Origin: an uncultured Planctomycetota bacterium
GTDB lineage: Bacteria; Planctomycetota; Planctomycetia; Isosphaerales; Isosphaeraceae
Length of the DNA: 64,000 bases
Assembly (NCBI GenBank): GCA_963845755.1
Contig: CAWJTV010000024.1
Coordinates: 157,352-221,351, forward strand
Direction: 5' to 3'
Within the stretch, counting starts at the first letter, position 1. Each line of letters starts with the position of its first letter. The notes beneath the pieces are model-generated. The model worked only from the letters and a program-made list of their open reading frames with translations. It was not told the origin of the DNA and made no database searches. Below, in pieces: positions 44,047 to 47,982 of this stretch. The translations under genes and the position numbers were made by a program.

Positions 44047-44898
44047 ATGCGTCAACAGATCAAACTTTTGGGGTTGCTGATACCGCTGCTGGTGGTGGTC
44101 GGGCCGGATCAAGCCGCGGCCGACGACGACCGCGACGAACCGAAGCGAATGGTCCTCGTGGAGCTCTACACGTCACAAGGTTGCGACATGTGCCCGACGG
44201 CCGAGAAAGTGCTCGGCGCGCTCGCCGAGCGGGACCGCCGGATCGTGCCGATCGCCTTCCACGTGGACTACTTCAACGATCCTTGGAAGGACGTGTTCTC
44301 CGACCCGCTGTACAGCCAGAGGCAGATGACCTACAACCAGCTCTACACCAAACCCAAGAACGCCGAGTACGGACTCTACTACACGCCGATGCTCATGATC
44401 GATGGCGAACAGTCGATCAACGGACGAGACGCCGCCTCAGCCCAGGCGGCGATCCGTCGGGCCCAGACCAAGAAACCCGCCGTGCAGCTCGACGTCGCCC
44501 TCGGCCTCAAGGGCGACGGGCTTTCGGGCACCGCCACGATCAAGGTGACCAGCCGGTCGGCTCGAACCGAAAAGTCGCCGCTCTTGGTCTGCGCCGTGCT
44601 CCGCGAGGACGGCGTGGTCACCGACATTCCCTCGGGCGAAAACGCCGGCAAGTCGCTGGTCGCGCGCTTCCCGGCGCGTCAGACGAGATACGAGTTCATC
44701 GAGCTTGACGGCAAGTCGCCCGCGACCCATCGGTTCTCGTTCACGATCGAGCCGACCTGGAACCGCCGGAATCTGCGTCTGGCCGTATTCGTCCAGGACA
44801 AGCGCACCGGCTTGGTCCACCAGACGACCGACCTCCCCTGGCGATCGACCCCGACCGCCGCGCCCTCGGCGGCCAAGGCTGCGCGCGGGACGCATTGA
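44047..44898 (+). CDS. DUF1223 thioredoxin-like exported protein
   Basis: 'LVELYTSQGCDMCP.A', 'AFHVDYF...WKD.FS', 'YTP'. Confidence 0.9.
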   Translation: MRQQIKLLGLLIPLLVVVGPDQAAADDDRDEPKRMVLVELYTSQGCDMCPTAEKVLGALAERDRRIVPIAFHVDYFNDPWKDVFSDPLYSQRQMTYNQLYTKPKNAEYGLYYTPMLMIDGEQSINGRDAASAQAAIRRAQTKKPAVQLDVALGLKGDGLSGTATIKVTSRSARTEKSPLLVCAVLREDGVVTDIPSGENAGKSLVARFPARQTRYEFIELDGKSPATHRFSFTIEPTWNRRNLRLAVFVQDKRTGLVHQTTDLPWRSTPTAAPSAAKAARGTH

Positions 44899-44955
44899 GA
44901 TCCCTCGTGGGCAGGACATCCGAAGGATCCCATCCTTATCGAGAAAGGAACTTCC

Positions 44956-45537
44956 ATGCCAGCTCCGAGACGATTGCTGACGCTCGCGATGACGGTCGTG
45001 CTGCTCGCCGCACCGTTCGCATTTCCCCAGGGCAATGGGAAGCCCGCGCCCGAGGAGCAGGCGGGCCTGAAGATCGGCGCGAAGGGGCCGAAGTTCACCC
45101 TCAAAGATCAGGAGGGCAAGGAACGCTCATTGGACGAATTCCTCAGAAAGAGTAAAGTCGCCCTGGTGTTCTACCGATCGGCCGACTGGTGACCCTTCTG
45201 CCGCAGGCAACTGGTCCAGTTGCAACGCGACCTCAAGTCCATCGAAGAGGCAGGGGTCCAGGTCGTCGGCATCAGCTACGACGACACGAAGGTCCTCAAG
45301 ACGTTCTCGGACCGCATGAAGATTGCCTTCCCGTTGCTCTCCGATCCTGGGAGTCAGACGATCGAGGCCTACCACATCCGGAACGAGGCTGCTCGAGGCA
45401 AGGCGGAGGGTGTGCCCCATCCGGGTACCTTCATCCTCGATCGCGAGGGCGTGATCCGCGCCAAGCTCTTCCTCGAAGGATATCGCGACCGGCACACGTC
45501 GGAAGCACTGATCAAAGCGGCGAAGGTCATCAAGTGA
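44956..45537 (+). CDS. Exported peroxiredoxin-like (AhpC/TSA, redoxin) selenoprotein with U-x-x-C motif; in-frame UGA at 45190-45192
   Basis: ORFs 44956-45192 and 45220-45537 are in one frame: 'LVFYRSADW*PFCRRQLVQLQ...GISYD...LLSD...HPGTFILDREG'. Confidence 0.85.
45207..45223 (+). promoter_or_regulatory. Putative bacterial SECIS upper stem-loop
   Basis: GCAACTG-GTC-CAGTTGC perfect 7-bp stem; G-first loop starts 21 nt after the UGA. Confidence 0.75.
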
Positions 45538-46409: not shown

Positions 46410-46710
46410 GAGGCGCGGTCCATTTCCCCACCCATTCGCTCCATCCTCCTTTTCGTCGCCGTGACTCCGAACCAGCCGAGGCGGCGGGTGCCGGTGGAGA
46501 ACCGTTGCTCCATGATGCCGGGTGTGTCGCCCCGCGGGCAGCGAGCGGGTTGACCGGGATGCCGTCGACCACGAGCCAGTAGTGATTCGGAGTCCCAACG
46601 AGTCGGCCTACGACTGCACGATCTGATGAGAAACAGAGACTGGTGGTATTGGCAGGGTGTCGTACTATACTGGATCGGCGTCAGAGTATCACCGGGGAGC
46701 CCAAAGGGAG
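46410..46710 (-). pseudogene. Collapsed remnant of an esterase gene plus its promoter (paralog of 19110-20420)
   Basis: 'HYWLVVDGIPVN' matches 'YYWFVVDGVPVN'; 46601-46710 is homologous to 20313-20420, with a degenerate operator. Confidence 0.7.
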
Positions 46711-46740
46711 CTGTCCGAGCACGGCGTCCGGCCTTTGTAG

Positions 46741-47921
46741 GGCTCGCAATTCAGCAGGTCGGTCAGCACCTGGAAATGGCCCTCGATCCCCCAGCGGCCC
46801 CGGTACGCGGCGCAGCAGTCGATCGCCGAGACATCCTCGGGCAGGTTGGTCACCAGGATGATCTCCGTCTCCCCCTCCCGCGTCGGCTCGTCCAATTCCA
46901 GGATGATCAGCCGCAGGCGATGCGCCGCCCCGGGCGTCTCGGGATCGTCCACGAGGATCGGCTGCTCGTGGACCTTGCCGGTCGGGCAGCGCCCCCGCGA
47001 CTGCCGCGGCCCGGCTGGTTCGTAGGGCAACGTCGTTTGGTGCCGCCGTGCCAGGAAGGACCCGCCGGCTCGCGCGATGCGGAACAAGAAGGTGCGGACG
47101 CACAAGTTGCGGTCGAGGATCCACAGCTCGCCGGCCGAGACGGGGACTTCCTTGAGCAGGTTGCGCTCCTGGGTGTGGGCGTTCTCCTCCAGGATCAGAT
47201 CGGTGATCAAGCCGCTGGCCGGCTCGTAGATCGCCAGCGACTTGCCGGGCAGACAGGCCGACCAGGTGGTCCGCGTCGGGGTCAGGCGATGGTCGGTCCC
47301 GGCCAGGACGTTGCCGTCGAGGATGCGGGCGCAGTAGCCGGGGATCGGCTCCGGCAGCAGGCCCCCGCCGCCTTCGATCAGGGCGCGGCAGCGGATCGCC
47401 GTGTGGCGGACGACCGCGGCGGTGATGGCCGGGCTCAGGCGATTGAGCTTGCCGTAGAAGGCCGAGAGCGAGGCGATCAGTTGGAGCTGGCGCCCCAGGA
47501 ACGCCGAGCGGGTGGAGGGGTTGAACCCACAGACGACGTCGAGCATGACCAACACGAGGTGCTCGAGGGTAAACTCGCGGCAGTATTCGCCCTCGGCGGA
47601 CTGCTCGAAGAGGAGGTCGAAGGGGGTGCCCTGGAGGAGCCAATCCAGGGTGATACGGGTCATCACGGTGGCCGGGGACTCCTGAATGCAGGGATTGAGG
47701 ATGGCCGGGAGGTCCGCGATGAGTGGAGGGGCAGGGTCGAGGAGATCCAGCCGGGCGGCGGGGCGCGGGGGTGGCACCACCGGCTGGGAGGTCCGTCCGC
47801 AGCGCTTCGTCGGCCCATCGAGATCAATCAGCCTGGGAGACATAGGTAGCCCTCCGTGATCGGGAACGAAAACCATCCCAGCCAAAGAGGTTATAATAAT
47901 TAACTCAGCATGTTGGAAGGG
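46741..47921 (-). mobile_element. Truncated IS4-family element (transposase 47843 to ~46741)
   Basis: 'ILDGN', 'ILDRN', 'YRGRWGIE' (YREK-type motif); homology appears to stop after 'LLNCE'; ends approximate. Confidence 0.8.
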
Positions 47922-47982
47922 GTAGGTGGGTGAAACCCACCGGTATTCACGCCGCATTCTTGGTGGGTCTCACCCACCCTAC
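47922..47982. repeat. GTAG-type REP doublet (REPIN-like)
   Basis: GTAGGTGGGTGAAACCCACC...GGTGGGTCTCACCCACCCTAC: two hairpins in inverted orientation with GTAG/CTAC feet. Confidence 0.75.

Follow-up and report, generated by a model that had tools for sequence, protein, structure and literature searches.

A predicted exported selenoprotein with a peroxiredoxin-type fold and a U-x-x-C centre in an Isosphaeraceae genome

Bacterial proteins that combine a peroxiredoxin (Prx)-type domain with a thioredoxin (Trx)-like U-x-x-C motif, in which U is selenocysteine (Sec), have been predicted for about 20 years. The Sargasso Sea study described a Prx-like protein with such a motif, common cysteine-containing homologs and a selenocysteine insertion sequence (SECIS) element just downstream of the UGA codon (PMC1088965); Table 2 of the Global Ocean Sampling study counts 225 selenoproteins as 'Prx-like 1' (pfam00578, UxxC; PMC2398784), and the type appears in a table of a 2026 review as 'Prx-like thiol:disulfide oxidoreductase' (PF00578, UxxC/UxxU; PMC13188914). 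Here we describe a gene that adds a member to this published type of selenoprotein. It lies in a 64,000-nucleotide stretch of DNA (hereafter the window; positions 157,352 to 221,351 of contig CAWJTV010000024.1, assembly GCA_963845755.1) from an uncultured planctomycete of the Isosphaeraceae, and very probably it is a single real gene whose codon 79, UGA, is decoded as Sec, a judgement that draws on comparison of sequences.

The encoded protein shares with the Prx-like (UxxC) family the PF00578 domain and the U-x-x-C motif, as opposed to the T-x-x-U of Sec-peroxiredoxin, the likeness being one of published descriptions and not of sequence comparison with representatives. Whereas the published sets of this family are mostly marine or of Deltaproteobacteria type, the sequences considered here come from Isosphaeraceae and other Planctomycetota, Verrucomicrobiota and, as labelled, a few other groups, and they differ further in a signal-like N-terminus and in a conserved hairpin of their own, GCARYUG-GUN-CARYUGC. 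Selenoproteins and Sec genes have been reported in two marine Planctomycetes (PMC4807772); the word 'peroxiredoxin' is absent from the main text of that paper, and a Prx-like protein may be among the candidates in its S9 Table. A literature search on selenoproteins in Planctomycetota, with supplementary files outside its scope, found no description of the present clade. The protein type and the recoding mechanism are both already known, and what is added is a predicted exported UxxC selenoprotein in organisms whose use of selenium has been little studied.

One reading frame across an in-frame TGA, and the hairpin that follows it

Under translation table 11 the gene appears as two open reading frames (ORFs), one of 78 amino acids (44956-45192) and one of 105 amino acids with a TTG start (45220-45537). 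A first-pass annotation of the window had read the two as one frame broken only by a TGA at a redox motif and followed by a perfect hairpin, and the coordinates bear this out: between the ATG at 44956 and the TGA at 45535-45537 the sole internal stop is the TGA at 45190-45192, within W-U-P-F-C, and the active-site stretch obtained by reading through it is F-Y-R-S-A-D-W-U-P-F-C. A single AhpC-TSA domain (PF00578) extends across the TGA (residues 40-169, E 2e-34, 118.6 bits against a cut-off of 26). In comparisons with 13-14 orthologs, the 50 codons 5' of the TGA have a dN/dS of 0.09-0.64 and the 110 codons 3' of it one of 0.10-0.19; judged by these ratios, the two halves of the gene, in one frame on either side of the TGA, are both under purifying selection.

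Orthologs were sought in the window's own genome and 60 relatives, 36 of the same family and 24 of other families of the class. The protein was found in 13 of the 61 genomes, namely its own and 12 of the 36 same-family relatives, and in none of the 24 from other families. Each of the 13 matches, which represent 13 genera, contains exactly one in-frame TGA, and 12 conform to the pattern FYRSA.W-TGA-P[FY]C with the TGA at the same column; the remaining locus, L036, is not matched by the pattern. Among the best 80 related loci from a wider scan of one genome per species, the U column reads TGA in 35 and TGC or TGT in 44, with one locus truncated, so that the alternation of Cys and UGA expected of a genuine selenoprotein is present at a single column. 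As labelled, the TGA-form loci belong to Isosphaeraceae and other Planctomycetota, Gemmataceae, Verrucomicrobiota (Chthoniobacterales and others), one member of the Sumerlaeota and one Blastocatellia metagenome-assembled genome (MAG), and the Cys-form loci mostly to Opitutaceae and Acidobacteriaceae.

The distribution of the two forms was mapped on a quick, unrooted maximum-likelihood tree of 77 rows, calculated with the Sec/Cys column left out and omitting L082 and L110 (frame breaks), L124 (no motif) and L126 (contig edge). Three changes of the Sec/Cys label are needed, of which well-supported branches force at least two, and the window protein falls within an all-Sec clade of 19 Planctomycetota rows (SH-aLRT 95). 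Since the tree is unrooted and many of its forks are open, no direction of change is claimed. Two placements stand out: the Sec-form locus L087, labelled Blastocatellia, is separated by very short distances from the Chthoniobacterales rows around it, and L086, labelled Akkermansia muciniphila, groups with other Verrucomicrobiota MAG sequences. Either could reflect a binning or labelling problem, or a recent transfer.

The hairpin consists of the arms GCAACTG (45207-45213) and CAGTTGC (45217-45223), which form a perfect 7-bp stem around the loop GTC (45214-45216). Its first base stands 17 positions 3' of the T of the TGA, and 21 nt separate the A of the TGA from the first loop base, as had been proposed. 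The SECIS of Escherichia coli fdhF, in which SelB binds a minimal upper stem-loop, has an apex that reads GGUC. Like it, the hairpin described here has a short stem and a small loop containing G and U and is embedded in coding sequence, at a distance that falls within the published 16-37 nt between UGA and loop (PMC10778597), and a small apical loop containing G is regarded as a hallmark of bacterial SECIS elements (PMC1088965); the distance, the stem and the loop GUC thus all agree with the published descriptions. It differs from the fdhF element in that the loop is a triloop, GUC or GUU, closed by a G-C pair (a 5-nt GGUCC if the pair opens), and in that no bulged U was identified.

Comparison among loci ties the hairpin to the TGA. 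All seven pairs form in a fixed register in 33 of the 35 TGA loci, and the other two are L078, with six of seven pairs, and L082, in which an intact hairpin is displaced by a 2-nt deletion. None of the 29 Cys loci that were scored forms all seven (range 2-6), a count that leaves aside 15 Cys loci recovered later. In an alignment of the window sequence with 34 TGA loci (35 sequences, A1), 244 of 245 stem cells (99.6%) hold standard pairs. Changes on both sides occur at two of the seven, 27-37 (GC in 27 sequences, AU in 8) and 28-36 (UA in 23, CG in 12), and one-sided changes number zero; the covariation score was reached by none of 500 shuffles, and sliding the partner by 1-3 columns reduces pairing to 0-49%. 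At the variable stem positions, the wobble base of a Gln codon pairs with the initial base of a Leu codon, or the other way round, and every change is synonymous, so that without a constraint on the RNA each side could vary independently. The G-G-U that spans the last position of the 5' arm and the beginning of the loop is invariant or nearly so. The SECIS-like character attributed to the hairpin in the first-pass annotation is therefore upheld by its conservation with compensatory changes and by its association with the TGA form, and the proposal of Sec recoding as a whole gains support from the conserved TGA, the alternation with Cys, the covarying hairpin and the decoding machinery described below. 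For the Planctomycetota and Verrucomicrobiota this is a well-supported natural SECIS with clean compensatory changes, from which a covariance model could be built to search these soil phyla for selenoproteins, and, if the reading is true, the UGA and its hairpin would constitute a compact natural cassette from high-GC bacteria.

Protein type and proposed mechanism

Among proteins of known structure the best sequence relatives are of the PrxQ/BCP type (2cx3, E 1.8e-16, and 3drn), followed by AhpE and ResA. An AlphaFold model built from 46 sequences has a mean predicted local distance difference test (pLDDT) score of 87.4, with values above 90 from about residue 40, and places U79 directly before a helix that spans residues 80-91. 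Foldseek comparison of the model returns PrxQ, BCP and AhpE first (template modelling score normalized by target 0.78-0.90), with ResA-type proteins close (0.78-0.85). When the protein is aligned to 2cx3 and 3drn, U79 falls on the Ser/Thr of the PxxxT/SxxC motif and C82 on the peroxidatic Cys, while the conserved Pro corresponds to Ser74 and the catalytic Arg to Pro155, inside H-P-G-T-F; P-x-P-G-T-F is common to the homologs viewed. PrxQ/BCP and AhpE proteins (Aeropyrum pernix 2cx3/4gqf, Sulfolobus Bcp1 3drn and Mycobacterium tuberculosis AhpE 1xxu), the best matches in both sequence and structure, thus carry Pro, Thr/Ser and Arg together with the peroxidatic Cys, whereas this protein has Ser74, Sec79 and Pro155. 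A canonical peroxiredoxin is ruled out, since only the Cys at the peroxidatic position is kept and the Pro, Thr/Ser and Arg are all replaced. As far as these alignments define it, the protein is one of Prx fold with a Trx-type U-x-x-C centre; the positions of U79 and C82 on the Thr/Ser and on the peroxidatic Cys, respectively, are the reason for placing Sec in a Trx-type centre and not in the role of a peroxidatic residue. The earlier designation 'peroxiredoxin-like' consequently holds for the AhpC/TSA domain and for membership in the Prx-like UxxC type, but not for the PxxxT/SxxC motif or the catalytic Arg, which are lacking.

Two further groups invite comparison. PrxU (the Eubacterium acidaminophilum type, NF040737) belongs to the same Pfam superfamily and likewise has Sec in the active-site loop before helix 1, but its Sec is peroxidatic (TxxU), whereas here Sec stands three residues earlier, at the Thr position, and a Cys occupies the peroxidatic one. 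ResA, TlpA and CcmG (DsbE) are exported reductants of Trx fold, as the present protein is predicted to be, with a motif of the W-C-x-x-C type, and ResA is among the top structural matches; however, all their family models stay under cut-off, and no genes for cytochrome c maturation or copper chaperones were seen beside this gene. More generally, no curated NCBIfam model reaches its cut-off: the scores, in bits, are 69.7 against 140 and 52.7 against 260 for the PrxQ models, 40 against 270 for PrxU NF040737, 59 against 170 for ResA NF002854, 24.6 against 230 for TlpA NF047696, 31 against 123.15 for DsbE TIGR00385 and 58.5 against 120 for the SelL-related redox protein NF040769.

The N-terminus has the pattern of a signal peptide. 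Within residues 1-24, two Arg precede a hydrophobic run of 17 residues. In 12-residue windows, hydropathy peaks at 2.62 for residues 7-18 and does not exceed 0.94 in residues 30-194, a similar hydrophobic N-terminal segment occurs in 41 of 47 full-length homologs, and the structural model has a pLDDT of only 52-53 over residues 1-30. A lipobox Cys is absent, and the homologs viewed do not conserve the twin Arg, so that a signal of the general secretory (Sec) type is the likelier one and the protein may be exported by that route. The signal peptide suggested at first pass is accordingly retained as a putative one, with n- and h-regions recognized by crude hydropathy and by the low-confidence N-terminus of the model.

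From these elements a course of events can be proposed, by analogy with the established bacterial pathway. As the ribosome arrives at the UGA, the hairpin would present its small apical loop, containing G and U, 21 nt further on; SelB, with GTP and Sec-tRNA(Sec), would bind it and deliver Sec. The signal-like segment would take the finished protein out of the cytoplasm, where U79, at the N-terminus of the helix, would act as the attacking nucleophile of the Trx-type centre, and C82, which structurally holds the place of the peroxidatic Cys, would resolve the adduct to a selenenylsulfide. This bond might then be reduced by an electron supply of the envelope such as the DsbD-type protein of the genome; a gene of the DsbD_TM family (95.1 bits) is present elsewhere in it, and to the extent that presence in the genome can tell, such a supply is available. 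Because the Pro, Thr and Arg of peroxiredoxins are missing, the protein is read as a reductase and not as a canonical peroxiredoxin: it would be a selenol-based thiol-disulfide reductase, which may also reduce peroxides or sulfenic acids in the manner of glutathione peroxidases. As to a specific role in reduction or in peroxide detoxification, we consider the case evenly balanced. A broader and distinctly tentative proposal, which we think unlikely to hold in full, is that the whole clade comprises extracytoplasmic selenol-based peroxide or disulfide reductases of soil Planctomycetota and Verrucomicrobiota in which Sec is the older state, with the in-frame SECIS fixing the peptide Q-L-V-Q-L-Q, and has been replaced by Cys at least twice. 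No exported selenoprotein other than metalloenzymes is known to have been characterised in bacteria, and this protein, if the proposal is true and is shown biochemically, would be the first.

Decoding machinery and alternative explanations

The window's own genome (G000; 14.27 Mb in 49 contigs, 64% GC, 87.9% complete) contains selA (471.6 bits), selD (376.2 bits), a tRNA-Sec (78.4 bits; called SeC with anticodon TCA by ARAGORN) and a selB match over cut-off (298.5 bits; G000:C29:294580-296525, locus L004). The Sec machinery on which the first-pass annotation had made its proposal depend is therefore found, with the reservation that selB is not one open frame. Nine of the 12 relatives with the TGA form likewise have both selA and selB over the cut-offs.

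Several observations weigh against Sec decoding of the gene or against particular parts of the account given above. Taken as a single sequence of 64% GC, the hairpin is unremarkable in stability (minimum free energy -12.6 kcal/mol, z -0.91, with 29 of 200 dinucleotide shuffles folding equally well), so that the case for it rests on the comparative data, and an Rfam scan of 45100-45320 (E<=10) returned only noise far under the gathering scores (snoZ247, HDV ribozyme, AS1726). Hairpins of the same class (a stem of at least 6 bp and a 3-5 nt loop starting with GU or GGU, 16-37 nt after the TGA) follow only 241 of 36,313 sampled TGA triplets of the genome (0.66%), but the contrast with the five Sec genes considered below is illustrative and not a clean test, as the class was delimited after the hairpins had been seen. 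Six of the seven pairs also form in register in four of the 29 scored Cys loci, so that the palindrome may partly reflect the peptide Q-L-x-x-L-Q. The gene was not found in 24 of the 36 same-family genomes, including G001 of the same genus, and is thus dispensable. Three relatives with the TGA form (G004, G009 and G029; 73-76% complete) lack both a selA match at E<=1e-40 and a selB match over cut-off. The assignment of an exported protein has hydropathy as its basis, and Pro, which precedes Q25, is unusual at the -1 position of signal peptidase I sites. Finally, the selB of G000 is divided among three frames, broken near residues 236 and 435; sequencing runs contain at most a 0.16 share of the selB stretch, four of them together cover the second break but not the first (about L004:1483-1503), and the short-read contig that bears on the second has a depth of 2, comes from a soil metagenome and may derive from a close strain.

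The condition of selB is the basis for the alternative that fares best, although we consider it very unlikely, namely that the gene is a relic: gene and SECIS would be intact, selB truly frameshifted, and translation would now stop at codon 79. A dead selB would indeed change the conclusion on Sec decoding in this genome, and the three frames of the assembly, with the first break lying where independent reads give no cover, speak for it. On the other side, the short-read contig matches over 151 nt with a single difference, a base missing at L004:892, so that the second break is absent from it. When the SelB of a relative with an intact gene serves as query, the break in G001 falls elsewhere, at residue 217/218, and G032 and G035 are unbroken; relative to G001, both breaks in G000 are single extra bases. 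These two facts, the missing extra base in the short-read contig and the different site in G001, make assembly indels the most likely origin of the breaks. The loss of frame near the C-terminus of an FdhA-type gene of the same genome (L137, described below) and the fragmented selA and selB matches in other relatives with few contigs and low completeness point to the same kind of noise; a small tblastn sample intended to gauge the rate of assembly frameshifts returned almost only selA and selB and gave no such rate. Moreover, G000 retains five Sec genes whose frames and hairpins are intact, and the window copy has a dN/dS of 0.10-0.19 past the TGA, neither of which fits a relic. As an observation in its own right, indel errors are suggested for the G000 assembly and for several relatives of few contigs and low completeness, and they would split many genes.

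That the UGA is decoded, but as Trp or Cys by near-cognate tRNAs or under a reassigned code, with the hairpin only stimulating read-through, is highly improbable. In favour of such decoding one might cite the 15 of 47 full-length database entries with W at the U position, a residue that was placed there by gene callers. A reassigned code, however, is excluded by the use of TGA as a stop, both at the end of this gene and at the ends of ORFs all along the window; Cys is the only residue with which the position alternates, one WSPFC entry excepted, as expected for a redox-active Sec; tRNA-Sec, selA and selD are present; and hairpins of the same class follow the UGA of the FdhA-type gene and of other classical Sec genes. 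The notion that the TGA is a nonsense mutation or a base-call error in a redoxin of Cys type could appeal to the frequency of Cys forms (WCPFC in 44 of the best 80 loci and 29 of 47 full-length database proteins) and to the errors that the assembly does contain, but its probability is practically negligible: the TGA occupies one and the same column in every one of the 13 family orthologs and in 35 loci of the wider set, labelled as members of four phyla, which refutes it in practice, the hairpin accompanies the TGA, the downstream codons are under purifying selection, and the assembly errors seen are indels and not substitutions. Decoding of codon 79 as Sec remains the explanation that we prefer.

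Annotation, neighbouring genes and other in-frame TGA codons

The expectation that annotation pipelines would split the gene was examined in its 120 best database proteins (P0002-P0121) and proved correct. C-terminal fragments of about 108 amino acids that start inside Q-L-V-Q-L-Q account for 73 of the 120, and the 47 full-length entries comprise 29 with Cys, 15 with W-W-P-[FY]-C, one with WSPFC and two without the motif. The W-W-P-[FY]-C entries are cases in which gene callers translated the TGA as Trp. The practical gain from recognizing the gene therefore lies in annotation, as public databases routinely contain it in split or truncated form or with its TGA translated as Trp.

No stable partner was identified among the neighbours. 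The upstream gene (44047-44898, + strand) encodes a DUF1223 protein that has a C-x-x-C motif (S-Q-G-C-D-M-C-P) and begins with a signal-like segment, and it was rejected as an operon partner, since it lies upstream in only five of the 35 TGA loci, plus the truncated L124 and one Cys locus. The downstream gene, convergent and of the 3-keto-disaccharide-hydrolase family, was rejected as a fixed partner, being seen there in none of the 80 loci; just past it lies an ORF of 422 amino acids (46689-47957, - strand). A DNA search of G001 for the gene and its neighbourhood returned only two matches of about 35 nt, and thus no information on synteny. In two relatives, a second redoxin-like ORF with an in-frame TGA (L-L-I-Q-F-A-S-W-U-V-G-C-R) was observed about 570 nt 3' of the ortholog; its counterpart was not found in G000. 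The coordinates of the features are collected in Table 1.

Table 1. Features of the predicted selenoprotein gene (window positions) and of other in-frame-TGA genes (G000, the window's own genome; other entries, relatives).
Feature	Location	Strand	Remarks
Whole predicted selenoprotein gene	44956..45537	+	193 codons, Sec at codon 79, then TGA stop
AAGGA, purine run resembling a ribosome-binding site	44945..44949	+	read from sequence; ATG 6 nt further on
Signal-peptide-like N-terminus, about residues 1-24, two Arg then hydrophobic run	44956..45027	+	LLTLAMTVVLLAAPFAF; by hydropathy
UGA predicted to encode Sec (U79)	45190..45192	+	same-column TGA in orthologs
U-P-F-C redox motif, U79 to C82	45190..45201	+	at start of helix 80-91
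SECIS-like hairpin, stem GCAACUG/CAGUUGC, loop GUC	45207..45223	+	within codons for Q-L-V-Q-L-Q
True stop codon, also TGA	45535..45537	+	no hairpin of SECIS-like class recorded 3' of stop
FdhA-type molybdopterin oxidoreductase, NQART-U-HSASV	G000:C9:260614, L137	-	hairpin GGUGCCC-GGUCU-GGGCGCC 18 nt downstream
AhpC-TSA/Thioredoxin_8 protein, W-U-G-P-C	G000:C11:21188, L138	-	perfect hairpin CACGAGC-GGUC-GCUCGUG 31 nt after UGA
T4_deiodinase-family protein with EF-hands, FGSFT-U-PPY	G000:C41:618471, L139	-	7-bp stem, GUU loop, 17 nt after UGA
CMD/AhpD-like protein, C-H-Y-U	G000:C41:612374, L140	-	7-bp stem, GUU loop, 17 nt after UGA
In-frame-TGA candidate, G-C-T-U-N-N-G	G000:C13:107579, L142	-	7-bp stem, GUC loop 23 nt downstream
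In-frame-TGA candidate, L-C-Y-R-U-M-Y-G-S-C-P	G000:C43:89969, L141	+	without hairpin of this class
W-U-V-G-C ORF in a relative	L026, TGA at 2304 of reverse complement	-	
W-U-V-G-C ORF in a relative	L029:2295-2297	+	

A first screen of the genome for further genes of this kind, with strict filters on GC at the third codon position and restricted to UxxC and CxxU motifs, found only the present gene among plausible proteins. In a crude screen for in-frame TGA codons flanked on either side by sequence with coding-like GC at each of the three codon positions, followed by comparison of the read-through products with Pfam, two candidates (L141 and L142) had no Pfam match, and four further genes have Pfam domains that span the TGA. 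All four belong to families listed as selenoproteins in Table 2 of the Global Ocean Sampling study (PMC2398784). The AhpC-TSA/Thioredoxin_8 protein is a candidate for a second redoxin-type selenoprotein, and the T4_deiodinase-family and CMD/AhpD-like genes lie 6 kb apart. The present gene and these four, five of five, have a 7-bp stem with a 3-5 nt loop initiated by GU or GGU at 17-31 nt after the UGA, and the genome is thus predicted to hide at least four more selenoprotein genes.

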